The notes: generated by a model not told the origin, from the sequence alone. A stretch of 64,000 nucleotides of DNA from Planctomycetota bacterium (GCA_965223505.1 CBDCWP010000040.1:128001-192000); one strand, 5' to 3'. Numbered from the stretch's first letter, positions 1 through 19,351 are shown. A program made the numbers and translations.

Positions 1-226
1 CGAGCGCTCCGGTGTCCCGGTTGGGACGCTTCAGCGCTGGGCTCGCCGACTGCGAAGCGAGGCGGCGAGCGCGGTCGAGCCCTTCGTGGAGCTCGCACCC
101 GTTCAGCCGGAATCTTGCGAGGAGCGCGTCGAAGTCGTGCTGTGTTCAGGCCGCACGATCTACCTGCCGACATCGAAACCGTTCGTGGGGCTCGAGGAGC
201 TCGTGACGCTGCTCGAGTCGTGCTGA
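1..226 (+). CDS. tnpA: IS66 accessory protein TnpA (5' truncated by window)
   Basis: Frame 2, not in ORF track: ERSGVPVGTLQRWARRLRSE...PFVEL...VEVVLCSGRTIYLP...LEELVTLLESC*. Its TGA overlaps the tnpB GTG (GTGCTGA). Confidence 0.8.
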   Translation, partial: ERSGVPVGTLQRWARRLRSEAASAVEPFVELAPVQPESCEERVEVVLCSGRTIYLPTSKPFVGLEELVTLLESC

Positions 227-600
227 GCCTGCCGGACGCGGTGCGCGTGTTCGTAGCGCGCGAGCCGGTGGACTTTCGCAAGGCGCACGACGGGCTGTGC
301 CAGGTCGTTCGCGACGTCTTCGGCGACGACCCGCTCTCGGGGCATCTGTTCGTGTTCACCAACAAGCGTCGTGATCGTATCAAGCTGCTCTTCTGGGACC
401 GCAACGGACTGTGGCTTCTGTACAAGCGATTGGAGCGCGGCACGTTCCCGCGCTTCTCGCTGCCCGGACGTGCATCGCGCCGCGAGGTCGATCGTTCGTG
501 GCTTGCGATGTTGCTCGACGGATTGGAGCCGTTCTCGGCAAAAGTTCATTCGCGTCATGTCCGACGTGTGCGTATAGATGAACGCAGCGCGCATGGATGA
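220..600 (+). CDS. tnpB: IS66 accessory protein TnpB (Orf2)
   Basis: PVDFRKAHDGL...DPLSGHLFVFTNKRRDRIKLLFWDRNGLWLLYKRLERGTF is the classic IS66 TnpB signature. Confidence 0.95.
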   Translation: MLSLPDAVRVFVAREPVDFRKAHDGLCQVVRDVFGDDPLSGHLFVFTNKRRDRIKLLFWDRNGLWLLYKRLERGTFPRFSLPGRASRREVDRSWLAMLLDGLEPFSAKVHSRHVRRVRIDERSAHG

Positions 601-2185
601 ACGCACGGCCCTTCTCGAACGTATCAATGAGCTCGAGAACGAGGTGTCGGCGCGCGACGCGAAGATCGGAGAGCGCGACGCTGCGATCGAATCGCGCGAT
701 GCGAAGATCGCGCAACTCCTACAAAACGTGGATGCGCTCAAGCGCATGATCTGGGGCGGCTCGGAGAAGCAATCGACCAACGCTGCGCCGCTTGAATCCG
801 CGCAGTTGTTCCTGGCCGGCATCCTCGAGCGAGCGCTGCGCGGGCCTGAGGCCAAGGGTGCGGTGGCCACGAGCCAGATCCAGGTTCCTGCGCACACGCG
901 CAAGAAGAAGGGGCGCCGCAACCAGTTCCCCGAGCACCTGCCGGTGCTCAAGACGACGTTCGAGCTTGCGGAGACGGAGCGCTCATGCCCCTGCGGCGGC
1001 CATTTGGAGCCGATGGGCAAGCAAACCAGCAAGGAGCTCGAGCGGGTGGAGTTCTCGCTGGTGCACGAGATCGAGCGGGTGAAGTACAGCTGCCGAAGTT
1101 GCCAAGAGAACGTGGTGACCGCGGCGGGTCCTGAGCGGGTGATCGACAAGGGCATCCTGGGTGTGGGGTTCTTGGCGCACGTGCTCACGGAGCGGTTCTT
1201 GAATCACATGCCGTATCACCGGCAGGAGAAGAAGTACGGATCGGAAGGCCTTTCGCTCTCGCGCTCGGTGCTCTCTTCTTCCTCGATCCGCTGCGCACAG
1301 CTCCTGGAGCCCATCGTGGATCAACTGCGGCGCGAGATTCTGGGTTCGGACATCGTGCACACCGACGACACACCGGTGACGATGCTTCAAGACAGCACGG
1401 GCGTGAAGCGCCAGGCGCGGGTGTGGATCTATCGCGACATCGACGGCCGTTGCTTCTTCGATTTCACGCAGACTCGCAGCCGGGACGGGCCACAGAAGAT
1501 CTTCGGCGACTTCGGCGGCTACATCGTGGCCGATGCGTTTCCGGGCTACGACAAGTTCTTCACGCACGGCACGGCCACGGAAGTGGCCTGCTGGGCACAC
1601 GCGCGTCGGAAGTTCGTGGCGGCGGAGTCGAGCGAGCCGAAGCTGGCCAAGGAAGCGATTCGCCAGATCGGCGAGTTGTACGCAATCGAGAAGCTCGGCA
1701 AGGACCTGGACGCGAAAGCTCGAAGAGAGCTTCGCGTACGTGAGTCCCTGCCGCGACTTGGCGCGCTGCGGACGTGGTTCGCGGCAACGCGCTCGACGGT
1801 TCTGGACAAAGGCGCCATGGGCCAGGCCATCGACTACGCGCTATCCAACTGGGACGCGCTCGTGCGCTACACCGAGGACGGGCGGCTTCCGATCGACAAC
1901 AACGCCGCGGAGCGCGCGCTCAGAGGCGTCGCGGTGGGACGCAAGAACTGGATGTTCGTAGGCAACCAGGCCGGCGGCGAGACGGCCGCGGGAATGTACA
2001 GCCTGGTGGAGAGCTGCAAGGCCGCGGGCGTGAATCCGCGCGAGTACTTCCAGGACGTGTTGCTGCGCATCGCCACGTGCTCGGATGTGACCAAGCTCAC
2101 GCCGCACGGATGGAAGGAACACTTCCTGCCGGACGTCGAGCAGCGACGCCAGAGCGCGCTGAAGAAGCTCTTCGCTCGCGCGTAG
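578..2185 (+). CDS. tnpC: IS66 DDE transposase TnpC
   Basis: N-terminal coiled coil, CPCGG..C..C zinc finger, HTDDTPV, ADAFPGY, CWAHARRKF, IDNNAAERALR, GRKNW. Confidence 0.97.
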   Translation: MNAARMDERTALLERINELENEVSARDAKIGERDAAIESRDAKIAQLLQNVDALKRMIWGGSEKQSTNAAPLESAQLFLAGILERALRGPEAKGAVATSQIQVPAHTRKKKGRRNQFPEHLPVLKTTFELAETERSCPCGGHLEPMGKQTSKELERVEFSLVHEIERVKYSCRSCQENVVTAAGPERVIDKGILGVGFLAHVLTERFLNHMPYHRQEKKYGSEGLSLSRSVLSSSSIRCAQLLEPIVDQLRREILGSDIVHTDDTPVTMLQDSTGVKRQARVWIYRDIDGRCFFDFTQTRSRDGPQKIFGDFGGYIVADAFPGYDKFFTHGTATEVACWAHARRKFVAAESSEPKLAKEAIRQIGELYAIEKLGKDLDAKARRELRVRESLPRLGALRTWFAATRSTVLDKGAMGQAIDYALSNWDALVRYTEDGRLPIDNNAAERALRGVAVGRKNWMFVGNQAGGETAAGMYSLVESCKAAGVNPREYFQDVLLRIATCSDVTKLTPHGWKEHFLPDVEQRRQSALKKLFARA

Positions 2186-2867: not shown

Positions 2868-4718
2868 CTAGCGAGGAACGATCAGCACCGTGCAGCCCGC
2901 CTCAGCAGCAAAGCCCTGCCGAAACGCTCTGCGATCCGCGATCGTCGAGTCGGGGTCGTAGATTACGAAGAGCGTGTGTCCGGCCGCTCTGTACTTGACG
3001 ATGTCGGCCGCGACCTCGTCTGTGATCTTGCTTGGTGGCCGCGTCTTCCGAGGGTACTTCGCCTCGATCAGCAGGTCGTGGCCCGCGACCTGATGGTCCG
3101 GTACCGCCCGTACGCTGGCGAATCGGATCGCGGGATGCTCGCGGCGCAGTGACTCTCCGTCGGCATTCAGCACCGCTTCGATGTGGTCGTTCAGCGAGTG
3201 TTCCCTGCTCGGCCGCTCATGCTGGAAGGCAATCGGGATGCTGTTCGACAGCCGGTCGGCGAGCGCCGCGATCAGAGCCTCTACAGGAGGTCTCAGATAG
3301 GCGCGATTCCGAATCAAGTCGAGCGCCGTGTCGGCCACGACGGGCAAAGCCGGATCGTCGTACAGATCTCGAAGGCGCCTGAGCGCACCGCGGACGCGGG
3401 AACCGTGGGTCTGCCACAGGCGCCACAACTGCTCGAGCGCTTCTGGCTCTGAGTCCACACCGACATGCGGTAAGACGGCGAGCAGATCATTGACGCGCTC
3501 TCGTCCGAATCGATCGACGCCCATCTCGGACGTCCTAATGGCCTGGCGCACGTAGTCCACGAACGTGGTCTTCTGCTCCGCGTCCAGGACGTCGCGGGCG
3601 AGATCCTTCGCATAGAGCTGCGGGTTCTCGTTGTCTTCCAGTTCGGCCGCAAGAATCGCCAAACGACGATCCACACACTGGAAGCAGCATCCGCAGTGCG
3701 TCTTCCCCTCGCCGAGAATGAAGGTCTTGGTGCATGAGACACTGCTCGGCAGCAGGTCGATCTGCCCGTGACTCTCAAGCAATCGAACCACATCAGTCTT
3801 GGTCTTCCACAGGAACGGCGTCGCGATCTCGAACGGCTCCTCCGCAATGATCGTGAACAGTTGGTTCAGGCCGGCAATGGTCCGCGGGTGAGTCGTACGG
3901 CTGGACCGACCGAGGCCGGCATCCTCACGCCGGGGGAAATTCAACGACGTGATGCCGTTCTCGCAGGCGGCGAATCCGTCACGACCGAGGGCGCGGCCTA
4001 AAGCGAACGCCATGCACGCATAGAGGAAGAAACGCGAGCGCTGCGTTTCCTCCTGTGCTCGCTCGCCTGTCAGGTGGCACCGGAACTGGTAGTGCGCCAC
4101 GCGCCCCGCGTATCGTCCCCTCAGTGCTCGCACCAGTTCTCGCTGCGTGCGCGTGACGCTCGGCTGGCGGGAGGAGTGGCTGACCAGACACAACGGGGAG
4201 TCGCGCGTGGAGAGGTGCTCGACCGCACCGGCGAGCGAGTCCAGGCCACCAGAGAACAACTGGACATCGGCGTCCGATGCGCACTCGGTCACTTCGCCGG
4301 TGTCGAAGAGCGATGCCGGCGGCGTGGCATGCCCGCCCTCGAACGCGAACCGGTACGGCTCATCGCCGGTCAGGAAGTGCAGGAGTTCCGTGAGGGCGTC
4401 TACGACGTCCGCACGCGCCCAGAACTCCGCGTCGCGGCAGCGGACCCGGAACTCAAGACGACGAGACCAGCTGTGAAACTCCAGGCTTGTGGGCGAGCCT
4501 CGTGATATCCGGCGATCTGCGCAGTAGACGTAGCTCGCCAGTTCGAGCAGATCGAGGAACCGCGGCGGGAGGGTTCCGAGACTCCGCACGAAGTCGGGCA
4601 ACCCGATCGCCACGTTCGCATCGGGCGGGCGGTACTCGAGCCGCAACTGCCCGCCCCTAGATCGCTCGCGTCGGCCCATCGCAGCACCGTTGCACAGAAT
4701 GACCGTGGGATCGCTCAT
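2868..4718 (-). CDS. QueC/QatC-like PP-loop ATPase fused to C-terminal PD-(D/E)xK (DpnII/MboI-like) nuclease domain
   Basis: PP-loop LFSGGLDS; ETQRSRFFLY; ENGITSLN; SSRTTHP; Zn motif SVSC...HCGCCFQCVDRR. C-terminal REHP...VPDH...LLIEAKY...EVAADIVKY...FVIYDP. ATG overlaps the upstream TGA. Confidence 0.88.
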   Translation of the reverse strand: MSDPTVILCNGAAMGRRERSRGGQLRLEYRPPDANVAIGLPDFVRSLGTLPPRFLDLLELASYVYCADRRISRGSPTSLEFHSWSRRLEFRVRCRDAEFWARADVVDALTELLHFLTGDEPYRFAFEGGHATPPASLFDTGEVTECASDADVQLFSGGLDSLAGAVEHLSTRDSPLCLVSHSSRQPSVTRTQRELVRALRGRYAGRVAHYQFRCHLTGERAQEETQRSRFFLYACMAFALGRALGRDGFAACENGITSLNFPRREDAGLGRSSRTTHPRTIAGLNQLFTIIAEEPFEIATPFLWKTKTDVVRLLESHGQIDLLPSSVSCTKTFILGEGKTHCGCCFQCVDRRLAILAAELEDNENPQLYAKDLARDVLDAEQKTTFVDYVRQAIRTSEMGVDRFGRERVNDLLAVLPHVGVDSEPEALEQLWRLWQTHGSRVRGALRRLRDLYDDPALPVVADTALDLIRNRAYLRPPVEALIAALADRLSNSIPIAFQHERPSREHSLNDHIEAVLNADGESLRREHPAIRFASVRAVPDHQVAGHDLLIEAKYPRKTRPPSKITDEVAADIVKYRAAGHTLFVIYDPDSTIADRRAFRQGFAAEAGCTVLIVPR

Positions 4719-5497
4719 CACTCGGACCGGCCCTCGCGAGCGAGCACTTCGCGCAACTTCTCAAAGGCGTATGCGACGAATCCTCGTACAACCGAGGCTG
4801 TGGGCTGCCCCTTCTGAGCGATCTTGTTGAACCAGCCCGCGGCGAATGACTGGGCGATGCGCGCTGTCTCGAACGCGTGTTGAGAGACGTCGTTCAGATG
4901 CGCGCTCAGGTCAGCGTCCAGCGCATCACGCGCGTCGAAGTCGGACGACGCGGCGGAAGCAGCGCGTTCCAGGTAGTACTTCAGATAGCGCTCCGTGCAG
5001 CCAGCGAAGAACAAGCGGGCGAGGTCAGAGAAAGCGGAGCCGCTACCCAGCTTGCGCCAGACCTCGTGAGGGTGCTTCAGCTCCTCGAAGAGCGGCGCAT
5101 CGTGGGGCTTCGCTTGGTCGTACCACGTCACGACCGCATCGGCGGCAGCCCGTGCAGCGAGTTCGGCGTACTCCGGTGCTCCTTCGCTCGCGCCAGCCGC
5201 ATCATGTAGGAATCTCGCCGCCGCCAGCGGCGTGACGGTTCGTTCCGTTCCCAGAAGACGTTTGAGCGTCGCGTCATCGGGCTCGCGGCAGGCGAGCCCG
5301 ACGGAGACCAGCGCCTGGAAGACGCCAACCGTGCTGTTGTCGGACGCGAGCCTGCTGAACCGGTCCCGCACGGCATCAAGGGTCTCGATCGCCACCGCGC
5401 CGATCGCCACCGTGCCCGAGGCGGCCCCAGAGACATCAGAGACGATGTTTTTCCACCGCCGCGTCTTGGGAAGGAAGCCGAGTCGCTCATGCCCCAT
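4718..5497 (-). CDS. Helical hypothetical protein starting MGHERLG; putative QatB-like partner of the QueC-like enzyme
   Basis: ATG at 5497 after a GGAGGGAAGG RBS; 259 aa; TGATG coupling to the QueC-like gene. The longer ORF-track start runs through GC-rich leader sequence. Confidence 0.75.
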   Translation of the reverse strand: MGHERLGFLPKTRRWKNIVSDVSGAASGTVAIGAVAIETLDAVRDRFSRLASDNSTVGVFQALVSVGLACREPDDATLKRLLGTERTVTPLAAARFLHDAAGASEGAPEYAELAARAAADAVVTWYDQAKPHDAPLFEELKHPHEVWRKLGSGSAFSDLARLFFAGCTERYLKYYLERAASAASSDFDARDALDADLSAHLNDVSQHAFETARIAQSFAAGWFNKIAQKGQPTASVVRGFVAYAFEKLREVLAREGRSE

Positions 5498-6008
5498 TTG
5501 TCGTGCCTTCCCTCCGCGTGCCCCCCCCCCGCTGGGCCCCGTCCCGGGCGGGGGCGCGGCTCGCGGACCACGTGACCCCGTCGTGAGCGGTCCGGACCGC
5601 TCCGCCCTCCGGCGAACCCCTCCGCCCCCGCCGAGCATATGCGCGCGGGGCGCCAGAGCACTACGGGCTGGCGGTCTGCCGCGGTGCCGGAGCACGCCGG
5701 GCGTCGGCCGTCACAGTGACCAACGGTGAGTGACGGTCGGGCGTTCAGGGCGCTGTAGCCGGTGGGAGACGGCGTCGTCAGGGACGGCAGGCGATACCTA
5801 ACATCGTGGTTCTGGGCAGAGCCGTGGTAGGCTCTCGGGGCGGGAAAGGGTTGATTCTGGACCCCGGGCAGCTCGGGGATTATGGGCCACGGTTCGCCTT
5901 CGGCGGGGTGCTCTAGGCCCAAAGGCCCATCCCAAAGCGCCCACGCCGTCGTGTTAGGTAGTCGGGGCTCCAGGACGCCTCACGTCGCCCTGTGGGCGCC
6001 CCCATCGG

Positions 6009-6383
6009 TCAGGCGTCCCGTTCGTCGCTCGAGCGCCCAGGACGCGCCCGTGCGCCATCGTCGCGCGCCGGTCCGGACACCCGGCCGACGCGCTTCCCCG
6101 AGTCGGGGCCCATCCCGGCCATGCGAAGCCGTGCCAACGCCTCGGCCGCCCGGAGTCGAAGGCGTGGCGTGAGACGCTCGTCCTCCGCCGCATCCGCAAG
6201 CGCCCCGGCGTGCTCGAACGGGGGCGCACGCTCAGCGAGCCGGGCAGCCACGACCATCAGCAGTAGCCGCGCGCTCTCGCGAGCGTCGCGCGCGTCCCAT
6301 CCACTGCGGCGGGGAAGGCTCGCCCGCCTCGCCTCCCACGGCTCCCACTCCCAGTCGGGCCGGTCATCGTCAGCCGCGCGCAT
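6009..6383 (-). CDS. Hypothetical protein downstream of terL, sharing a motif with the TerS-like gene
   Basis: TGATG coupling to the terL stop; segment ALADAAEDERLTPRLRLRAAEALARLRMAGM. Confidence 0.6.
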   Translation of the reverse strand: MRAADDDRPDWEWEPWEARRASLPRRSGWDARDARESARLLLMVVAARLAERAPPFEHAGALADAAEDERLTPRLRLRAAEALARLRMAGMGPDSGKRVGRVSGPARDDGARARPGRSSDERDA

Positions 6384-7702
6384 CAGCTCGACCACCTCGT
6401 TCGTTGGACCGCCCTACCGAAGCGTCCGACGAGGCGGGTCTTCTGCCGACGCGGCGTTCCGGCAACCGCGGGAAGCCGGGCCTCGATCAGCGATCCGTTG
6501 AACACAGCGACGGCGTAGGCGAGCACGTCTACCTGATCGTCATGAGCACCCTGCGGGAAGCCCAGCAGCTCGTCCACGAAGTCGCGACACCAGTGCGCAT
6601 GCCGAGGCAGGAGCACCCGCCCTCCTTCCAACGCAGCCGTCGCCGGCAGCGCGCGGGAGACCTTGTCGCGGTCGGCGCGCAGCTCGCGAATCGGAAGCCC
6701 GTGTCGGCGTGCCTCCTGGATCAGCGCCAGCTGGAAGCCGACCTTCTCAACCCACAGCACGGGCAGCTTCCATCGCGCGCGGGCGGCTTGCATTGCGGGG
6801 ACCAGGTCGGGGCCCTCGCGCCGGGCGCGGTCGATCGAAAGCACCAGCAACCGTCGATCGGGCGTCACTCCGAAGACCCCGATCACGGAGTAGTCGGCGC
6901 TGGTGCGAACTGACGCCGCGAGATCGACCGTGGCGAATCGTCGGAGCTTCGAAACGCGAAGGATCTCGCCGCCGGGCAACTGAACCGTTTCAGGCGAGGG
7001 CCTCGCGTAGCGGTGCTCGAACCACTCGGGCTTGAACAGACCGGCTCCGGCGGTCACGAATTGGGCCAGATGCTCTTGCGCGAACTGGAGCTCGCCCATG
7101 TCGCGTCGCGCGGCGACGAGCTCCTCGGCCGGGATGATGGGGTTCTCGCTCGTTGGCCGCTGCCAGCGTGCCCAATCCGACGACGTCTCCGCCGTCTGGA
7201 ACAGGTCCGCGATCCAGTTCATGCCGCACGGCGTCGTGAGGAACAGCGCCCAGCCCTGCCGGTCGGCCAGTGCGGGGCGGATGCCGTTGAGCCACGCCGC
7301 CTCCTTCATGAAGGCCGCTTCGTCGAGCACGACGCCGTCCAACCCGACGCCGCGAAGTGCGTCGGGATCGTCGGCGGACTTGACGGTGATCGCGCCGCCG
7401 CCCGGCAGCACGATGCGCATCTCCTTCTCGCGCTTCTCGATCCATGCGCCACGGAGCGCCTTCTTGAGATCGCGCCAGATCAGGAGTCCCTGGGGGTAGT
7501 TCGGCGCAACCCACCAGACGTTCCCGCCGTCGAGTGCACCGCGGAATCCGGAATCCGGCGGGCCGTGGCCCTCGACGCAGGCAATCAGGCCAAGCAGCGA
7601 TTTCCCCCAACGGCGACCGCACACCACGACCTTGAGCCGAGCCGGGTGTCGCAGCACGTCGAGTTGGTGCGCGAGCGGGTCAGGCAGGAGGATCTTCGCC
7701 AT
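6383..7702 (-). CDS. terL: Phage terminase large subunit
   Basis: Walker A CGRRWGKS, Walker B VVLDEAA, coupling motif LTTP, RNase-H-like nuclease VDLAAS..DYSV and C-terminal HDDQVD. Confidence 0.93.
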   Translation of the reverse strand: MAKILLPDPLAHQLDVLRHPARLKVVVCGRRWGKSLLGLIACVEGHGPPDSGFRGALDGGNVWWVAPNYPQGLLIWRDLKKALRGAWIEKREKEMRIVLPGGGAITVKSADDPDALRGVGLDGVVLDEAAFMKEAAWLNGIRPALADRQGWALFLTTPCGMNWIADLFQTAETSSDWARWQRPTSENPIIPAEELVAARRDMGELQFAQEHLAQFVTAGAGLFKPEWFEHRYARPSPETVQLPGGEILRVSKLRRFATVDLAASVRTSADYSVIGVFGVTPDRRLLVLSIDRARREGPDLVPAMQAARARWKLPVLWVEKVGFQLALIQEARRHGLPIRELRADRDKVSRALPATAALEGGRVLLPRHAHWCRDFVDELLGFPQGAHDDQVDVLAYAVAVFNGSLIEARLPAVAGTPRRQKTRLVGRFGRAVQRTRWSS

Positions 7703-8162
7703 CGTTCTCGCTCGGTTTCAGTGGCCCCTGGACGCCGTGCCCGTTCGACTCGGGCGCAGCGCTTCGAGGCAGGGCGGCATCGTCCCGGCTCTGTTCGGAC
7801 TCGAGAGAGGACGCCGCGCGCCAGTCCTTGGCCCGAACGATCTCGATCGACTGGTTCACCTGCGTGAGTGCGAGTGACTGCGGCCCCGGCTTGAGACCGA
7901 GCCGATCGAGGGCGACCTCGCGAGCGCCCGTCAGCTCAGACAACGCCTCCATGGCTTGGAGCCTGAGTTTCGCGAGCACCTCGGCCGCGCGGCGACGTTC
8001 GCGGATGTCGTTCTTCTCGTCGCCCGCGATCTTGGTCAGGACGGCGACGTCCAGGTTGTGCTGGAACGCGGGCGTATCGAGGAACGCTCGGTAGGCCTCG
8101 ATGGAATCCAGCGCCCTTTGCTCGAGTTCGTCGTCGTCGCCCTCGGGATCGCGCTCGTTCAC
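7680..8162 (-). CDS. Putative terminase small subunit
   Basis: 160 aa, helical; GTG overlaps the MTase TGA; lies directly upstream of and overlaps terL. Positional call. Confidence 0.6.
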   Translation of the reverse strand: MNERDPEGDDDELEQRALDSIEAYRAFLDTPAFQHNLDVAVLTKIAGDEKNDIRERRRAAEVLAKLRLQAMEALSELTGAREVALDRLGLKPGPQSLALTQVNQSIEIVRAKDWRAASSLESEQSRDDAALPRSAAPESNGHGVQGPLKPSENDGEDPPA

Positions 8163-9496
8163 GATGCGCGTTCCGCACTCTGGCCAGTCACCTGCTCGTA
8201 GCGCTTTACGATCACGTCGCAATAGAGTGGGTCGATCTCCATGAGGAAGGCGCTGCGGCCCGTGCGTTCCGCGCCGATGATCGTGCTGCCGCTCCCGCCG
8301 AACAGGTCGAGCACGTTCTCTCCGGGCAGGGAGCTGTAGGTGATCGCGAGCACGGCCAGTTCGACGGGTTTCTCCGTCAGGTGGACCATGCTCTGCGGGT
8401 TGACCTTCTTGACGGCCCAAAGGTCCGGCACGTTGGGCGGCCCGAAGAACTGGTGCGCCGCCCCTTCCCGCCAGCAGTAGAAGCACCATTCGTGCGCACC
8501 CATGAAGTCCTTACGCGTCAAGACCGGGTGCTGCTTGTCCCAGATGATGGCCTGGGAGAAGTACAGCCCGGCCTCCTTCAGCGCCGCGGGGTAGTTCGCG
8601 CAGTTGGCGTACCCGCCCCAGATGTAGGCGGCGCGACCCGGCAGGAGCGCGCGGGCGGCGTTCGAGAACCACGCGCGCAGCATCTCCGCGAACGCCTCGT
8701 CCGACACGAAGTCGTTCTCCAGCGGCCGGTCCTTGGCTCGCAGCCGCTCGTGCGTTGCGTTGCGCTTGCTCGGGTGGCGCGCAACGTCGAGTCCCTGGTG
8801 GTGCGTCGCGCTGAACGACGAGAGCCCGGCCGCGATGGCATTGTTGCTGCGCGGCTCGACCTTCACGTTGTAGGGCGGGTCGGTGTTCACGAGGTGCACG
8901 GGCGCTCCATCGAGCAGCCGGTCAAGGTCCTCGACGCTGCCGCTGTCGCCGCAGAGCAGCCGGTGGCGCCCCAGGAGCCACAGGTCACCAAGCCTCGTGA
9001 TGGCCTCTTCGGGCGGCTCCGGGACGGCGTCGAGATCCTGGTCCTCCTGCATGGCACGAATCGCCTGTTCGGCTTCGTGGGCGATGCGGCGCATCTCCTT
9101 CTCATCGAAGCCAAGCGTCTGGAACACGTCCGGTGGCAGGGCCTGTAGCTCTTCGGAGAGCCGCACGAAGTCCCACTCGGCGAGCTCGGACGTGCGGTTG
9201 TCGGCAATCGCGTAGCCGCGGGCTTCCGCGCCATCAAGGTCGGTGGTGATGGCCGCGATCTGTTCCCAGCCAAGGTGCTTCGCCGCCGCCAGGGTGCCGT
9301 TGCCGGCGAGCACCGTCCCGTCGGGCGCCACGACGATCGGCTTCTGCTGGCCAAAGCGAGACAGCGAGTTCGCGATGGCCATGAGGTTGCGTTCGTCGTG
9401 CGCGCGCGCGTTGTTCGGATCAAGGCGCAAGTCGGCCGCAGGACGCAAGTGCGCATCGAGGCCAGGAGCATAGCGGGGCACTACCGATGCAACCAT
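8159..9496 (-). CDS. ParB/Srx N-terminal domain + N6/N4 DNA methyltransferase fusion
   Basis: NNARAH...SLSRFGQQKPIVV...LAGNGTL..IADNRTSE (ParB-like); HRLLCGDS; catalytic TDPPY; HLTEKPV; SAM-binding LDLFGGSGST. Confidence 0.93.
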   Translation of the reverse strand: MVASVVPRYAPGLDAHLRPAADLRLDPNNARAHDERNLMAIANSLSRFGQQKPIVVAPDGTVLAGNGTLAAAKHLGWEQIAAITTDLDGAEARGYAIADNRTSELAEWDFVRLSEELQALPPDVFQTLGFDEKEMRRIAHEAEQAIRAMQEDQDLDAVPEPPEEAITRLGDLWLLGRHRLLCGDSGSVEDLDRLLDGAPVHLVNTDPPYNVKVEPRSNNAIAAGLSSFSATHHQGLDVARHPSKRNATHERLRAKDRPLENDFVSDEAFAEMLRAWFSNAARALLPGRAAYIWGGYANCANYPAALKEAGLYFSQAIIWDKQHPVLTRKDFMGAHEWCFYCWREGAAHQFFGPPNVPDLWAVKKVNPQSMVHLTEKPVELAVLAITYSSLPGENVLDLFGGSGSTIIGAERTGRSAFLMEIDPLYCDVIVKRYEQVTGQSAERAS

Positions 9497-13254: not shown

Positions 13255-13727
13255 CCGCATCCGCCACCGAGGGCCTCGCTGCCAGCATTCGCGCACTCGG
13301 CGAGCTGAGCGTGCCCGATCTGAGGCGTCGCTTCGAGCAAGTCTGCGCGCGCCCAACGCGCTCGGACAACCGCGAGCACCTGACCCGAACGATCGCGCAG
13401 ACGCTGTGCGACGCCGACCCGCCCAGTGACCGCAACGCTCGCCGCCGCGTCGCACGCGCGCTCGAAGCGGCGCTGCGTCCCCGGAAGGGACCGGAAGCAC
13501 GCTCGGCTGATCCCCGCATCCCGCCCGCCGGCAGCATCCTCCGACGCCGCTACCGAGGGCGCGAAATCCAGGTTCGGATCAGCCGCAGGGGCTTCGTCTA
13601 CGAGGGCCAGACGTACAGCTCGCTCACGGCCGTCGCGCACGCCGTCACCGGCGCCCATTGGAACGGCTTGATCTTCTTCGGCCTAACCGAACGGAAGCGT
13701 GGTCCGGCCGGAAGGAGGCAATCGTGA
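13251..13727 (+). CDS. DUF2924-like protein (full length)
   Basis: LSVPDLRRRF...DPRIPPAGSILRRRYRGREIQV...GFVYEGQTYSSLTAVAHAVTGAHWNGLIFFGL. Confidence 0.88.
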   Translation: MTASATEGLAASIRALGELSVPDLRRRFEQVCARPTRSDNREHLTRTIAQTLCDADPPSDRNARRRVARALEAALRPRKGPEARSADPRIPPAGSILRRRYRGREIQVRISRRGFVYEGQTYSSLTAVAHAVTGAHWNGLIFFGLTERKRGPAGRRQS

Positions 13728-14806
13728 GCCTCTACAAGCCGAAGCGCCGCGATCGTCACGGCGTGCTTCGCCCCTGCGGCGTGTGGTGGACGGACGTCGT
13801 GGTTGCCGGGACGCGCTACCGCCGCTCGCTCGGGGTACGCGACAAGCACGCCGCGCAGGTTCTCGAAGCAGAGCTGATCCGCAAGCTCGAGCTCGAAGCC
13901 GCGGGCCTGCCGGTTGAGAACGGAACGGCCGACGCCAAACCCTCCGTGCTGATCGGAGAGTACGAGCGCGAGCTGCAGCGTCGCCGCTGCTCCGTCGTGC
14001 ACGTCCGCAAGTCCATCCAACGCGCCGAGGTCCTTCTCAATGGATCCAAGCGGCTGGCGGACGTCACACCCGCGAAGATCCGTGGCGCCCTGGATCGGCT
14101 CTCCTTGGGAGAGGCGTCACCACGAACGGTGAACGCCTACCGCCTCGCGCTCTCGGGCTTCTTCAACTGGCTGGTACGCGAGGGACGCTGGCCGACCAAC
14201 CCGGTCAGGCAAGTCGCGGCAGTGAAGGTCAACGGCGCGACACGCATGCGCCGTGCTCTTACGGAGCGGGAACTCGCCCGTCTTCTCGACGCCGCTCCGT
14301 CCGCTCGGGCGCTTGTCTACCGCGTGGCCGCCACGACCGGGTTGAGGCGCGGAGAACTCGCAGCACTGACCTGGGCCGACATCGACCTGGACGCAGCAAC
14401 GCTTCGGGTGCGGGCCTCGACGTCGAAGAACCGACGTGATGCCACGCAGCCCCTCCCCGACGGAACGGTGGTCGCTCTCGCGACGGCCTGCGGCGAACGC
14501 CAGATACCTAGCTCACGGGTGTTCGCCTCGATCCCGATGATGCCCACCTTTCGCAACGACCTCGATGCCGCCAACATCCCCTACGAGTCGGAAGAAGGGG
14601 TGGCCGACTTCCACGCCCTGCGTGTCACCTACGCGACCATGTTGGCGCGGGCGGGCGTCTCGCTGGTCCAGGCCCAACGGTTGATGCGCCACTCCGATCC
14701 GAAGCTGACGGCCAACATCTACACGAGGTTGCAGCTCGATGACGCGCACGCCGCGGTGGCGCGGATCGACCTCTGCACGAAGCGGCCGGGTCGCGTCACC
14801 AACTAG
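13724..14806 (+). CDS. Tyrosine recombinase / integrase
   Basis: AAGGAGG RBS; N-terminal arm-binding-like region; catalytic TGLRRGEL, SKN, FHALR, MRHSD, IY. Confidence 0.95.
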   Translation: MSLYKPKRRDRHGVLRPCGVWWTDVVVAGTRYRRSLGVRDKHAAQVLEAELIRKLELEAAGLPVENGTADAKPSVLIGEYERELQRRRCSVVHVRKSIQRAEVLLNGSKRLADVTPAKIRGALDRLSLGEASPRTVNAYRLALSGFFNWLVREGRWPTNPVRQVAAVKVNGATRMRRALTERELARLLDAAPSARALVYRVAATTGLRRGELAALTWADIDLDAATLRVRASTSKNRRDATQPLPDGTVVALATACGERQIPSSRVFASIPMMPTFRNDLDAANIPYESEEGVADFHALRVTYATMLARAGVSLVQAQRLMRHSDPKLTANIYTRLQLDDAHAAVARIDLCTKRPGRVTN

Positions 14807-14940: not shown

Positions 14941-16119
14941 ATGCCGAGGAGCGTGCCCGCGCCCGTGAACCCCGACGTGCTCGTGTGGGCGCGAGAGTCC
15001 GCGCGTTGGAGCCGCGAGCTCATGGCTAAGGCCATTGGCGTGGATGTCGCGAAGGTGACGTCGTGGGAATCGGGTGACGCGACGCCGACGTTGGCGCAGC
15101 TTCGCGCGTTCGCCAAGAAGTGTAAGCGGCCGTTATCGGTGCTCATGCTCGATGAACCGCCTCGCGACTACATGCCCCTTGAAGACTACCGGTCGATTGC
15201 CGGGACTGCCGTCACAGCTGATGCTCCCGCCCTCGCCTATCAGGTCCGGCTCGCGTGGGAGAGACGAGAGACTGCTCTCGACTTGTACGACGATCTCGGC
15301 GAGCGCCCCCCCGATTTCGGTGTAGAGGCGACGCGTAGATCGAAACCGGACACCCTGGCTGCGCGGCTCAGAGACCGACTGGGCACTCCCATCGAAGCTC
15401 AGATGAAGGCGAGAACCGCAGCTGACGCGCTCCGTATGTGGCGCTCCGCTTTCGAAGCGGCAGGTGTGCTTGTCTTTCAGGCACCGCGCTTGAGCGAAAA
15501 CGCAATGCGGGGGTTTTCTATCGGCGAGCACCCACTGCCGGTGATCGTGTTGAACAGCAAGGACGCAATCGTGGGGAAGATCTTCACGCTGTTTCACGAA
15601 CTGGCGCATGTGGCACTGCGACATGGCGGCGTGTGCGACCTCGAACCACGCCACCTCTCACCGGAGAAACGCAACGTCGAGGTGTACTGCAACCAAGTCG
15701 CCGCCTCCGCGCTCATGCCAGCCGAGGTCTTCCTCGGCCAGCACATCGTCGTTAGAAACGAAGGCCATATGGAGTGGTCGAACGGCGACGTCACGGCCCT
15801 TGCACGACGATTCAACGTCAGCAGAGAGGCCGCACTACGGCGCCTGTTGACATTCGGAAGAACGACGGAGCGCCACTACAAAGCAATGCGTGCCGCTTTT
15901 GCCGATGAGTACGAGCGAGTGCCCACGACCGAGCCGCTACGAATCCCGCAGGACATCATGGCCATCAGCAGAAACGGGAGGGCGTACTCGCAGCTCGTGA
16001 TCGCCGCCTATGACGCCAACGCAATTACAGCAGCCGACGCGTCAGACTTCTTGGGCGCCAAGCCCAAGTACATCGCGAAGATCCGGGATCGAGCGTTCTC
16101 CGCGGCGGGAACCGCTTGA
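14941..16119 (+). CDS. XRE-HTH + ImmA/IrrE family Zn metallopeptidase
   Basis: VNPDVLVWARE...WESGDATPTLAQL (HTH); FTLFHELAH; EVYCNQVAASALMP; FNVSREA. Confidence 0.93.
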   Translation: MPRSVPAPVNPDVLVWARESARWSRELMAKAIGVDVAKVTSWESGDATPTLAQLRAFAKKCKRPLSVLMLDEPPRDYMPLEDYRSIAGTAVTADAPALAYQVRLAWERRETALDLYDDLGERPPDFGVEATRRSKPDTLAARLRDRLGTPIEAQMKARTAADALRMWRSAFEAAGVLVFQAPRLSENAMRGFSIGEHPLPVIVLNSKDAIVGKIFTLFHELAHVALRHGGVCDLEPRHLSPEKRNVEVYCNQVAASALMPAEVFLGQHIVVRNEGHMEWSNGDVTALARRFNVSREAALRRLLTFGRTTERHYKAMRAAFADEYERVPTTEPLRIPQDIMAISRNGRAYSQLVIAAYDANAITAADASDFLGAKPKYIAKIRDRAFSAAGTA

Positions 16120-16583
16120 AATACGTCGTTGACACGAGTGCGCTGACGTTCGGGTGGAACACGGTGTACCCGCCGGAGAGGTTTCCCACGCTTTGGGCCC
16201 GGATGGAACGCGCGATTCGGGACGGCGCGCTTCGCAGCAGCCGCGAAGTAAAAGAGGAACTCCAGAAGAAGGACGACGATCTGTTGGCCTGGGCAAAGCA
16301 ACAAGACGACTTCTTCATCGAGACGAACGCGGATATCTACAACCGAAGCCGAGAGATCGTGAATGACTTCCGAGGTCTGACGAAGAAGGCCAGGGGGCGA
16401 CGCCCCGCCGATCCGTTCCTAGTCGCCATCGGCGAGATACATGGGTGCGCAGTCGTCTCGGCAGAGGGCCGATCGGCCTCGGACGATCGCCTCAACGCGA
16501 GGATCCCGAATGTCTGCGACGCGCTCGGCGTGGAGTTCATGACGTTGCCTGAAGTGATCGTCGCGGAAGGCTGGACGTTCTAG
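16116..16583 (+). CDS. PIN-domain protein (DUF4411-like), putative toxin
   Basis: YVVDTSAL, YPPERFPTLW, EVKEEL, ADPFLVA, VVSAE, IPNVC; overlaps the upstream stop. Confidence 0.88.
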   Translation: MKYVVDTSALTFGWNTVYPPERFPTLWARMERAIRDGALRSSREVKEELQKKDDDLLAWAKQQDDFFIETNADIYNRSREIVNDFRGLTKKARGRRPADPFLVAIGEIHGCAVVSAEGRSASDDRLNARIPNVCDALGVEFMTLPEVIVAEGWTF

Positions 16584-16897: not shown

Positions 16898-17689
16898 ATG
16901 GACGCCATCGACCGGAAGAAACAGCAGACGGATCTAGTTGTGGGCTTGGGACATCTGCTGCGTCCGCTGCGAGGTATCGCCGTGGAAGGCAAGACGCAGG
17001 CCGAGATCGCCAACGCGTGTCGGGAATTCAATGCAGACCTGAAGGACTACCGCCGAGCGGCCGACGCATTCGCAGAGGAGTACGAAGTAGAGCGCATTAG
17101 CATCACCAGAGCGCTCAACTTGCTGGCGAATCAGCTCGGTCACCACCGGGACAAGCCCGATTCACTGGCGCGAGAGTTGGACACCGCGCAGGCAGCCGTG
17201 ACGGACGCGCTGCTGCGCGTACCGCTAGAGGTCCCCTCTCTCGTTGTAGGTGAACTGTCGCCGTTTCGCGCATACCTGACGCTCAAGACGCTGTTCAGCG
17301 CAGCGCGCACGCGGGTCATGTGCACGGACCCGTATATGGACCGCACCATCTTCCACCGCTACGTCGCCGACGTGGACCCCAACGCCGCTGTGTTGCTGGT
17401 CACTACGAACAAGGGTGGCCGAGGCGCCAATCGGCTAAGGGAGGTGGTGGACGTGGCGCGCCTGTACGCCGCCGAGCGCTCGCCCACTGCATTCACGCTG
17501 GTTCAGGCCGCGAGCGCGCACGACCGGCATCTCGTGTGCGACAACGAAGCCCACCATCTGGGCGGATCGCTGAAGGACGCCGCCGCGAAGGACCACTACA
17601 GCATCACGCCGCACGACCTCACCGATGCGGAGAACGCGATCCAGACGCTGGTGGCCGGTGGCACCACGTTGATCGCGCCGCCCCCGTAG
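16898..17689 (+). CDS. Helical N-terminus + PLD-superfamily-like (HDR variant) nuclease domain
   Basis: C-terminal half VMCTDPY...HDRHLVCD...HHLGGSLKD resembles MIT_C/PLD-like nuclease folds. Confidence 0.7.
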   Translation: MDAIDRKKQQTDLVVGLGHLLRPLRGIAVEGKTQAEIANACREFNADLKDYRRAADAFAEEYEVERISITRALNLLANQLGHHRDKPDSLARELDTAQAAVTDALLRVPLEVPSLVVGELSPFRAYLTLKTLFSAARTRVMCTDPYMDRTIFHRYVADVDPNAAVLLVTTNKGGRGANRLREVVDVARLYAAERSPTAFTLVQAASAHDRHLVCDNEAHHLGGSLKDAAAKDHYSITPHDLTDAENAIQTLVAGGTTLIAPPP

Positions 17690-17872: not shown

Positions 17873-19351
17873 ATGGCAATGGGCTACACAGACCGCCTCT
17901 CGTTTGACTCGGTAATCCCCGATGCCGAGCGCGTTCAGCGCGAACTGAGCAGGAGTGCGGAGCAGCTCTTCGGCGCGCTTCACCCTTCGCTGACACCACG
18001 CGTGTACCCAATCGCGGTGCCGAAGGAACCATCGGGCAGGCTGATCGTCACACCTGACCACCCGGAGTGGCTTGCAACCGCATCGAGGCTAGCGAACAAG
18101 CAGTTCCCGCGGAAGAAGATCAACGCAACGCTGGTGGGCCTTGAGCAATCGGAGGCAGCCACAGCATTCGCTGAGGAGAGCGTACGAAGCCACCACTTTG
18201 GTTTCACGATATCGCAGGCCATTGAGCAAGCCGTCGCACACCACGGCGACGACACCTATACCTACGCCTGCTCTGATGGGACGTTCCGACGGGGGTACTG
18301 GATCGGAACGGTCCTGGGGCTTCCCTCTGCAGCCCTGGATTGGACCGACCGCTTTAGGACGCAGTTGATTACCGACTCAAATAGGAAACCAGGGCTCGTT
18401 CCGGCGGCAGTGGGACGATACCTGGCAATGGCATCTCGAGTGCTTCGAGAGGCGAAGGAGTTTGACGAACTCCCGACAACGTGGCCCGAGGAGATCCTCC
18501 GCGAGGCCGGCGCGCTTCTCCTGGCACACGCAAGCGGCATTGAGTACGGCGCATTCCACCTCTTTGATGCACTTACCACCGTCGCGGCACTGCCGTACGA
18601 GGGCAAGACGTGTACGGCGCGGGTGCACGTTGGACCCGAATGGAAAGTTCGAAGGTCCATCGAGGTCGAACTTGAGGGACCGATCGGCACGCAGAGCCAT
18701 CGCCAGTTCAGGAAGCTCGCAGCCACGGCAGCGAATGTCCCGCTTCTGACAGATGGCGCACAGTTGCTCGGCTTCGGTGAGATTCCCAAGGAACTGCAGC
18801 CGGCGTCCGTCGGATTCACGGGGCTCTCCCAGTGGGCCCTATCCCTTGGCGCAACGCAGCTGATGCAGGTAACGGCGGGACTGGTACGGCTGCCCGCCCA
18901 TGTGCTGGCACCGGCGGAGATCCTGGCGCGAATACACCATGTGTTTCCAGACGCCCCACACGAGGCTTCAGAGCGGCTCGGAGAGCTTGTTGACCAGCTC
19001 GTCTCGCTACGAGAGAGCGGCCTGCTGATCATCACGGAGCAACCGCAGAAGTTCCGAAACTTCAAGAGTAGTTACGCTCTCCGCCCACGCGCATTGTCTG
19101 CGAAACGCATTCGTGACCTCCTGCGGATGGATGGCGCGGTCGTGCTGGATCTCGATGCGAGGCTACACGCCGCTGGGGTGATCCTCGATGGCCGTGCCTG
19201 CGATGCGGAGGATCCCAGCCGAGGAGCTCGTTTCAACTCAGCCCTACGGTTTGTCAGAGATACACCATGTCTTGCTGTGGTGCTTTCCGAGGACGGCATG
19301 GTTGATCTGCTTCCGAACCTCGCACCCGACGAACCGAGCGGGGAGCGCTGA
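17873..19351 (+). CDS. Diadenylate cyclase (DisA_N/DAC) domain protein with long N-terminal sensor-like region
   Basis: MDGAVVLD, GVILDG, SRGARFNSA, VVLSEDGMVD; upstream LPYEG...RKL...LLTDG segment like DACNG/DACNH-type proteins. No TM or HhH domain. Confidence 0.85.
   Translation: MAMGYTDRLSFDSVIPDAERVQRELSRSAEQLFGALHPSLTPRVYPIAVPKEPSGRLIVTPDHPEWLATASRLANKQFPRKKINATLVGLEQSEAATAFAEESVRSHHFGFTISQAIEQAVAHHGDDTYTYACSDGTFRRGYWIGTVLGLPSAALDWTDRFRTQLITDSNRKPGLVPAAVGRYLAMASRVLREAKEFDELPTTWPEEILREAGALLLAHASGIEYGAFHLFDALTTVAALPYEGKTCTARVHVGPEWKVRRSIEVELEGPIGTQSHRQFRKLAATAANVPLLTDGAQLLGFGEIPKELQPASVGFTGLSQWALSLGATQLMQVTAGLVRLPAHVLAPAEILARIHHVFPDAPHEASERLGELVDQLVSLRESGLLIITEQPQKFRNFKSSYALRPRALSAKRIRDLLRMDGAVVLDLDARLHAAGVILDGRACDAEDPSRGARFNSALRFVRDTPCLAVVLSEDGMVDLLPNLAPDEPSGER

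Follow-up and report, generated by a model that had tools for sequence, protein, structure and literature searches.

A cassette of two overlapping genes occupies positions 2868 to 5497, on the minus strand, of a 64,000-nucleotide (nt) stretch of DNA from a Planctomycetota bacterium (GCA_965223505.1 CBDCWP010000040.1:128001-192000; hereafter the window). Gene 1 encodes a small helical protein that begins Met-Gly-His, here called the partner, and gene 2 encodes a QatC-like enzyme with a nuclease-like domain at its C terminus. We assign a probability of roughly 0.6 to the reading that the two genes form a self-sufficient anti-phage module of the QatBC type in which the enzyme itself carries the effector. 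The anti-phage system to which this comparison refers, QatABCD, was reportedly described by Gao et al. in 2020. The cassette contains the following features, all on the minus strand (residue numbers refer to the encoded proteins).

4718-5497, minus strand: gene 1, the partner, 259 amino acids (aa), all-helical, proposed substrate or regulator of the enzyme (open reading frame [ORF] and translation)
2868-4721, minus strand: gene 2, QatC-like PP-loop enzyme with C-terminal restriction-endonuclease-like domain, 617 aa (stop codon at 2868-2870)
4716-4721, minus strand: stop/start overlap GTGATG, with the TGA of gene 1 and the GTG or ATG of gene 2 (sequence)
5453-5497, minus strand: partner N-terminal motif, residues 1-15, M-G-H-x-R-x-G-x-L-P-K-T-x-x-W (conservation; co-fold contacts)
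3294-4721, minus strand: QatC-like core, which spans residues 1-476 and is shared by every tail variant (an N-terminal extension, the PP-loop Rossmann domain, the zinc site and C-terminal helices)
4236-4253, minus strand: PP-loop SGGLDS, residues 157-162, ATP pyrophosphate-binding motif (sequence and conservation)
3885-3905, minus strand: SSRTTHP, residues 273-279, QatC-type substrate pocket (alignment to solved QatC)
3663-3734, minus strand: zinc cysteine cluster C330...C343-G-x-C346-x-x-C349-x-D-R-R, residues 330-353 (sequence and conservation)
2871-3149, minus strand: putative PD-(D/E)xK nuclease domain, Pfam match over residues 525-614 with D542, E553 and K555, protein ending at 617 (Pfam)

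The junction reads GAG TGA TG on the coding strand, where the TGA overlaps the ATG by 1 nt (TGATG) or the GTG by 4 nt. Gene 2 encodes 617 aa from the GTG and 616 aa from the ATG one codon on, and a database copy (P0003) is 616 aa long. The gene 1 product (translation of 4718-5497) begins MGHERLGFLPKTRRW. These readings bear out the original prediction, made from the sequence alone, of two genes overlapping as TGATG, a first product starting MGHERLG, and a second of about 616 aa with an SGGLDS loop and a zinc motif. A GGAGG/GAAGG stretch lies 5' of the gene 1 ATG. The G+C content at third codon positions (GC3) is 0.76 to 0.78 in both cassette genes, versus approximately 0.9 in the chromosomal genes past 24 kb in the window. 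A run of ten cytosines (G10 on the coding strand) at 5521-5530, 24 to 33 nt 5' of the partner ATG, falls in the leader or promoter region and is a possible slippage-prone tract.

A QatC-like enzyme core

Judged by sequence, the core of the enzyme is homologous to QatC. The PADLOC QatC model matches residues 55 to 386 of the gene 2 protein (E = 3.5e-50), and the PDB sequences of two solved QatC chains, 9zee_B (E = 1.1e-25) and 9vlk_A (E = 1.1e-24), align to residues 47 to 386. The canonical QueC models score far under their cut-offs (TIGR00364, 25.6 bits vs 150.3; PRK11106, 16.9 vs 378), and there is a weak match to Pfam PF06508 (QueC) at residues 281 to 355. A canonical QueC of 235 bits is encoded on contig 13 of the same genome, and QueD also lies elsewhere in that genome. 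Given these scores and the separate QueC, we rejected a housekeeping QueC identity. The original prediction had described gene 2 as QueC-like and distinct from housekeeping QueC, and PADLOC, NCBIfam and the solved structures now make it QatC type.

The motif set of the QatC family (SGGxDS, D-x4-R...WxR, RxRxxF/Y, ExG, RTTHP, P-x4-TK, and the Cys4 zinc site) is present in its entirety. In a conservation alignment of 39 diverse core sequences (approximately 27 to 60% identity), S157, G158, G159, D161, and S162 of the PP-loop are invariant, as are C330, C343, C346, C349, and R352 of the zinc motif SC...HCGCCFQCVDRR, which comprises residues 329 to 353. This cysteine cluster agrees with the zinc site reported for QatC in PMC13279940 and in parts of PMC13329287. 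The positions specific to QatC, as listed in parts of Libby et al. (PMC13329287), are invariant or nearly so: D69-x4-R74, W85-x-R87, E254-N-G256, H278-P279, P302-x4-T307-K308, the Cys4 site, and Y370. SSRTTHP aligns with STRTTHP of solved QatC, with R275, H278, and P279 invariant and T276 and T277 nearly so. Two invariant threonines of QatC stand in for the 7-deazaguanine-binding Tyr/Asp of QueC and Cap9 (PMC13279940); the enzyme has Ser274 at the position of the first Thr of the pair. In the broad sense, the enzyme falls within the QatC lineage.

The nuclease tail

The C-terminal domain of the enzyme matches Pfam PF18742 (REase_DpnII-MboI) at residues 525 to 614 (E = 1.5e-8; 34.8 bits vs a gathering cut-off of 27). 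The stretch VPDH...IEAKY...AADIVKY...IYDP, from which a PD-(D/E)xK domain had been predicted, falls within this match, and the D...ExK residues are among those invariant in 42 homologues (E528, D542, E553, K555, R558, D573, and K576), by which the nuclease motifs are intact. PF18742 occurs in all 120 of the full-length homologues listed (of 1732 matches), each approximately 620 aa long. An AlphaFold2 model of residues 380 to 617 has a predicted local distance difference test (pLDDT) score of 85. A Foldseek search of the tail model returned nothing at E <= 0.001, the best match being Shedu at 0.047; type II restriction enzymes top the fold search, and NucC, Card1, Can2, and Shedu are also listed. 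The tail additionally has a weak match (2.5e-4) to the Argonaute-associated PADLOC models Aga_Helical-REase.

The partner protein

Among 34 diverse partner sequences, down to 23% identity, the N-terminal residues M1, G2, H3, and R5 are invariant, as is W15, and L9 and P10 are nearly so. A search for homologues gave 427 matches; 117 of the 120 listed start MG and 106 start MGHE, and the three exceptions include one evident mis-called start. The conservation of Gly2, which had been proposed for survey, thus holds. The AlphaFold2 model of the partner consists of 13 helices (pLDDT, 88.8), with residues 2 to 10 of low confidence. Neither the single sequence nor a 68-sequence profile has a match in Pfam, PADLOC, NCBIfam, or the PDB sequences, and a PADLOC search with all 68 members of the partner family gave scattered weak matches only, none of them to QatB.

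Ten QatB genes, drawn from genomes of the same phylum by the NCBIfam QatB model, all start (M/V/L)GTS and share G9, P10, P18, and W20; a protein search seeded with one QatB recovered only close relatives (80 to 95% identity). Because the profile-profile comparison of partner and QatB is not significant, the partner is best described as an analogue of QatB in position and, presumably, in function; any homology between the two would be very remote. Its identification as QatB was rejected for lack of significant sequence or profile-profile likeness. The term "Qat-like" in the original prediction therefore stands for the enzyme, through its homology to QatC, and fails for the partner, which is not detectably a QatB homologue; for the cassette it rests on the enzyme and on analogy.

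Residues 74 to 127 of the partner (5117-5278) form the sole stretch that aligns weakly with QatB (E = 0.0034, 9.5%). The same residues are predicted to touch the C-terminal helices of the enzyme and may be a trace of ancestry shared with QatB.

Predicted complex of partner and enzyme

Co-folds of the partner with enzyme residues 1 to 490 were run with controls and scored 0.91, 0.85, and 0.85 (median, 0.85) against 0.01 for the best control. The mark set for this score is passed by 116 of 157 complexes of known structure and by 2 of 215 mismatched pairs; its calibration is approximate for this pair because custom unpaired alignments were supplied. The runs share at least 71% of contacts, with a partner pLDDT of at least 76. 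The predicted interface has three elements: partner residues 1 to 11 against S157 of the PP-loop, Q226, E254, T276/T277, C331, and F347/Q348; enzyme loop 263 to 274 against partner helices near residues 170 to 191; and enzyme helices 381 to 429 against partner residues 89 to 127. The co-fold, suggested by the original prediction as a check, thus puts the partner N terminus at the PP-loop. The QatBC crystal interface comprises the QatB N-terminal tail in the active site, loop N265-H282, and the helices of the C-terminal extension (PMC13279940; parts of PMC13376578 and PMC13639016).

It is unlikely that the co-fold passed through the model's memory of the QatBC structures, because no sequence likeness between the partner and QatB is detectable and the structures date from 2026. 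The prediction supports binding of the partner to the QatC-like core.

Conservation of the gene pair

Related loci came from two scans. The first, which covered a single genome of each species, gave 8 loci, found in Selenomonadales, Syntrophales, Phycisphaerales, Desulfobacterales, Omnitrophota, and Verrucomicrobiota. The second, of metagenomes, added 80 loci; these were the 80 of 476 most similar to the enzyme and are hence a biased sample. The two genes strictly co-occur. The partner lies directly upstream of the enzyme gene in all 8 loci of the species scan, and among the 88 loci in total it is encoded in 68 of the 70 with at least 780 base pairs upstream of the enzyme gene. Both partner-less loci (L050 and L074) have enzyme genes truncated at the N terminus, beginning at core model positions 143 and 107, respectively. 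In all 68 complete partners the start codon is followed by Gly-His. Stop and start overlap in 51 of the 75 related loci with a partner match, in 45 of these by 4 nt.

An all-against-all comparison of the ORFs of the 8 species-scan loci and the window, which represent different phyla, found only the two cassette genes in common. The features of the cassette are not due to chance, since the enzyme-nuclease fusion and the partner are both conserved, and by these comparisons the pair is a widespread, apparently autonomous module. A partner profile matches 9 of the 401 genomes sampled from the window's phylum (vs 12 for the QatB model, 7 of them above cut-off) and 1 of 16 other genomes of the window's own family.

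A pair on a Leptospira noguchii plasmid has both genes annotated "hypothetical protein" (NCBI pipeline, one record inspected), and an IS982 transposase adjoins it (L118 3275-4168). Two Verrucomicrobiota genomes contain interrupted versions, either decaying copies or assembly errors: frameshifts split both cassette genes in one (L008 7200-9936), and the enzyme gene is in two pieces in the other (L007 8001-9865).

Exchange of C-terminal domains

When the core alone (residues 1 to 476) was searched against 1.84 billion representatives, clustered at 50% identity, it matched 3866 representative clusters at E <= 1e-3, of which 804 reach E <= 1e-30. The tails of these proteins are modular. Among the best 150 core representatives, only 39 have the nuclease tail, and the other tails form at least two dozen groups. 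A Pfam scan of the tails of 32 representatives (P), together with the tails of the fetched loci (L), gave the following assignments.

TIR: P0249, P0282 (Pfam)
PNP_UDP_1: P0248, P0260 (Pfam)
Metallophos: P0379, P0386 (Pfam)
Trypsin_2: P0296 (Pfam)
Sigma-54 AAA+: P0246 (Pfam)
Sigma70_r4: P0364 (Pfam)
Trans_reg_C: P0388 (Pfam)
Guanylate_cyc: L078 (fetched loci)
Trypsin_2: L085 (fetched loci)
Helix-turn-helix (HTH): L059 (fetched loci)

Eleven of the 17 fetched-locus tails scanned have no Pfam match. The partner family also accompanies the non-nuclease variants. The survey of homologues thus recovered the swappable C-terminal domains that had been anticipated, in the form of restriction endonuclease (REase), TIR, PNP, metallophosphatase, protease, cyclase, and HTH tails. 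Two Verrucomicrobiota enzymes (L005 2864-4948 and L008 8350-9936) follow the core to residue 476 and then continue into unrelated tails, of which the 218 and 168 aa scanned have no Pfam match; many other tail groups are likewise unannotated.

A FastTree phylogeny of 127 cores, 9 canonical QatC proteins, and the host QueC (rows of 540 aa or more) separates all 127 cores from canonical QatC by a single branch (Shimodaira-Hasegawa [SH]-like support, not bootstrap, of 90). Tail types switch between close relatives on this tree: well-supported branches force at least six changes involving the REase tail, and the sister pair formed by P0279 (REase) with P0282 (TIR) has a support of 100.

Genomic context

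The cassette lies in a prophage-like region of low GC3 that contains other defense-type genes, and a major capsid protein and a resolvase are encoded just upstream of the window. The neighboring features are as follows.

115-2185, plus strand: IS66 element (TnpB-like Orf2 and DDE transposase), abutting the cassette
6383-7702: terminase large subunit, phage-related setting
8159-9496, minus strand: ParB N-terminal domain and N6/N4 DNA methylase (PADLOC MTase_II, 1.9e-88)
13658-14806: tyrosine integrase, phage-related setting
14941-16583, plus strand: HTH and IrrE/M78 peptidase protein overlapping a DUF4411 gene by 4 nt (PADLOC RmrA, 1e-19)
16898-17689: ORF like the PADLOC candidate PDC-S05 (3e-11)
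17873-19351, plus strand: DACNG and DACNH sensor domains with a DisA-type diadenylate cyclase domain

The terminase, integrase, capsid, and resolvase genes agree with the phage-related element that had been claimed. The claim that QatA, QatD, and CD-NTase are absent from the immediate neighborhood also held: no QatA, QatB, or CD-NTase family occurs among the ORFs neighboring the cassette, the model for QatA, a KAP-family NTPase (NF041923), has no match in the genome (92% complete), and the QatD model (NF041926) finds only a 66-bit TatD-like match (cut-off, 230) on another contig and none near the cassette.

Insertion sequences (IS66 here and IS982 in Leptospira) may move or frame the module. 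The ParB-methylase is of the phage-type orphan methylase kind and is not conserved beside the cassette in the nine loci compared. Just past the integrase, the HTH-IrrE/DUF4411 pair resembles a second two-gene defense or toxin-antitoxin pair, and the diadenylate cyclase protein possibly belongs to a nucleotide-signaling conflict system.

Proposed mechanism and alternative readings

QueC-family enzymes adenylate a carboxylate and then pass it to a nitrogen nucleophile (parts of PMC13376578). Cap9 attaches 7-deazaguanine to Gly2 of its CD-NTase (PMC13279940; parts of PMC13329287 and of bioRxiv 10.1101/2025.04.06.647259); it is the only case in which Gly2 chemistry has been demonstrated. The essential MGTS N terminus of QatB sits in the QatC active site (PMC13279940; parts of PMC13376578 and PMC13639016), and defense requires both the PP-loop and QatB Gly2 (PMC13279940; part of PMC13376578). 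QatBC alone protects against some phages, e.g., lambda-vir (PMC13279940), and is the minimal defense unit in the 2026 structural papers (structures 9zee/9vlk; PMC13279940; parts of PMC13376578 and PMC13639016). The original prediction had drawn on the Qat and Cap9 background, and Cap9 deazaguanylation at Gly2 and the MGTS terminus in the QatC site are both documented in papers. The 2026 Qat papers leave open the QatC reaction and how modified QatB stops phage (PMC13279940, Discussion).

By analogy with these systems, we propose that the cassette acts in defense as follows. The partner and the QatC-like core would form a 1:1 complex, as modeled here (crystallography exists for QatBC only), with predicted contacts through the active-site loop (263 to 274) and the C-terminal helices (381 to 429) of the enzyme. 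Removal of Met, as shown for QatB, would expose partner Gly2, and the MGHxR...LP...W tail is predicted to sit in the PP-loop active site, where the enzyme may use ATP to adenylate a carboxylate substrate and transfer it to the Gly2 amine. The Cap9 precedent for such a substrate would be 7-carboxy-7-deazaguanine, yet the pocket is of the QatC type and not the QueC/Cap9 type. The state of the tail, whether modified or not and inserted or released, would then control the fused PD-(D/E)xK nuclease. Control would most likely proceed via altered association of the complexes, because restriction-like nucleases cut duplex DNA with two active sites acting as a pair, and the activated nuclease would degrade phage DNA, host DNA, or both. 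That tail modification or occupancy serves as the effector switch is suggested by the chemistry of QueC enzymes, the modification of Gly2 by Cap9, the requirements of QatBC, the retention of both active site and tail in this family, and the exchange of effectors.

Rival readings were also weighed. If the partner simply held the nuclease inactive by binding, with the PP-loop domain mostly a scaffold, the cassette would be a toxin-antitoxin or addiction module, as its translationally coupled genes with the small protein first, its large predicted interface, and its position on mobile elements beside insertion sequences might lead one to expect. A scaffold, however, would not need the ATP-binding and zinc residues or the Gly2-His3-Arg5 tail, all of which are kept at approximately 25 to 30% identity, and the same partner also occurs with tails that are not toxic, such as HTH, which together make an addiction module improbable. 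The Sigma70_r4, Trans_reg_C HTH, sigma-54 AAA+, and Guanylate_cyc tails, along with the lack of Pfam matches for most tails of the larger sister group, point instead toward a general post-translational signaling switch that drives a fused output, with the nuclease version possibly serving some other role, such as element maintenance or competition between mobile elements. As an account of this cassette we regard such a switch as unlikely, given that domains of the TIR, PNP_UDP_1, metallophosphatase, trypsin-like protease, and REase kinds are those that defense systems usually employ as effectors, that the distribution is patchy and tied to mobile elements, and that the nearest characterized relative, QatBC, is a defense unit.

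The occurrence of PF06508 and REase_DpnII-MboI matches in one protein, a ParB-N6/N4 methylase 3.4 kb away, and a host with QueC and QueD could also indicate restriction linked to DNA modification, in which the QueC-like domain makes or senses 7-deazaguanine (Dpd type) and the nuclease cuts according to the mark, possibly with the nearby methyltransferase. This reading is very improbable: the QueC equivalog score is 25.6 bits against the cut-off of 150.3, the QatC-type motif stands where QueC has its deazaguanine-binding Tyr/Asp, the nine loci show no conserved transglycosylase or methylase next to the pair, and the invariant Gly2 of the partner is left unexplained. A restriction-modification pair with the nearby ParB-methylase was rejected because only the two cassette genes are common to these loci.

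Several results count against a QatBC-type defense module all the same. The HTH, Trans_reg_C, sigma-54 AAA+, and cyclase tails are regulatory and not destructive, so the core need not be confined to immunity; with some tails being HTH, AAA+, or cyclase, it looks like a general switch with variable outputs and not solely a nuclease gate. The cassette has no match among 50,697 phage records and only one full-length match among 72,556 plasmids. With the NCBIfam QatC equivalog the enzyme reaches 178.8 bits (E = 1.6e-52, residues 55 to 385), short of the cut-off of 280. On the side of the partner, hhalign against the ten QatB sequences gave E = 0.13 (probability, 0.46%), a more diverse partner profile gave a nonsignificant E of 0.0034 (9.5% probability over 55 columns), the NCBIfam model NF041924 of QatB (Pfam PF28083) has no match in the 92%-complete genome, and Foldseek with the partner model found nothing at E <= 0.001 in the PDB, in a library to 2026-04-08 that may lack the QatBC entries. 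The approximate calibration of the co-fold belongs here too, and the QatC reaction has not been reconstituted even for canonical QatC (PMC13279940).

The reading of the cassette as a defense module with a built-in effector has implications beyond this locus. We give even odds to the broader proposition that the core and its Met-Gly-His partner make up a large, so far undescribed family of switches (804 or more clusters at E <= 1e-30) that work by modification of an N-terminal glycine and are wired to interchangeable effectors. If so, the family would show the output that canonical QatBC lacks, Gly2 modification of the partner would be the signal that arms the effector, and DNA cleavage or NAD+ loss would offer a direct enzymatic read-out for the QatC reaction and the phage trigger. 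The family argues that the QatC/partner pair is the sensor or switch and not the killing part, its nuclease or TIR tails supply assayable outputs for reconstituting QatC chemistry, and in these respects the cassette bears directly on the mechanism of Qat. It would also add a second family of substrates, which is unrelated in sequence to QatB, has a distinct N-terminal signature (MGHxR vs MGTS), and is about as frequent as QatB in the window's phylum (9 vs 12 of 401 sampled genomes). Censuses of defense systems probably miss the cassette or file it as incomplete Qat, because the plasmid record inspected annotates both genes as "hypothetical" and PADLOC-DB 2.0.0 lacks a partner model.

Comparison with known systems

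PADLOC-DB 2.0.0 contains no model for the partner or for the pair as a system, the latter being a check that the original prediction had called for. Searches of the literature on QatC/QatB, QueC-like, and deazaguanylation systems yielded no QatC-effector fusion and no MGH partner, apart from the neighborhood table of PMC13329287, which was not seen and might list such fusions; PF18742 is absent from one supplementary file of PMC13329287.

Canonical QueC shares with the enzyme the SGGxDS PP-loop, a C-terminal zinc-cysteine cluster, and the weak PF06508 match, but the enzyme is three times as long, falls short of the TIGR00364 cut-off (25.6 vs 150.3 bits), and coexists with the genome's own QueC. 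Type IV CBASS (cyclic-oligonucleotide-based antiphage signaling system) likewise pairs a QueC-family PP-loop enzyme, Cap9, with a partner that is encoded beside it and bears Gly2, on whose amine Cap9 acts. Cap9, however, is approximately 185 aa long and has the deazaguanine-binding residues of QueC, whereas the enzyme here has 617 aa and a QatC-type pocket, and the partner is an unrelated helical protein. With neither a CD-NTase nor a Cap10 (TGT-like) family among the neighbors of the cassette, type IV CBASS was rejected.

The nuclease tail resembles, in PADLOC and fold searches, several restriction-fold defense effectors (short-Argonaute Helical-REase, Shedu, NucC, and Card1/Can2). Unlike in those effectors, the domain is here joined to an enzyme of protein-modifying type and not to an Argonaute-associated, CARF, or nucleotide-sensing module. 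In contrast to type II restriction-modification, no methyltransferase is conserved beside the nuclease (the nine loci share only the cassette genes).

The cassette differs from QatABCD in having no QatA, QatD, or recognizable QatB, and it falls outside the definition of that system. The enzyme is approximately 150 to 200 aa longer than QatC, with its fused nuclease, and its core group is separate from the nine canonical QatC proteins (SH-like support 90, a branch not starred in the tree) and under the NCBIfam cut-off. Compared with QatB, the partner has MGHxR in place of MGTS, approximately 14 residues ahead of its first helix as opposed to 30 to 90, and no significant sequence similarity. The likeness to QatBC nonetheless extends over the whole pair: an enzyme homologous to QatC over residues 47 to 386, with QatC-specific motifs; an all-helical protein of approximately 260 aa encoded directly upstream, whose invariant Met-Gly start precedes a conserved Pro and a conserved Trp; a predicted complex that uses the same three contact elements as the QatBC crystals; and a two-gene arrangement without QatA or QatD, as in the QatBC reported to be active alone against lambda-vir. 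By this comparison the cassette looks like an apparently undescribed, compact relative of the Qat system with a fused effector.

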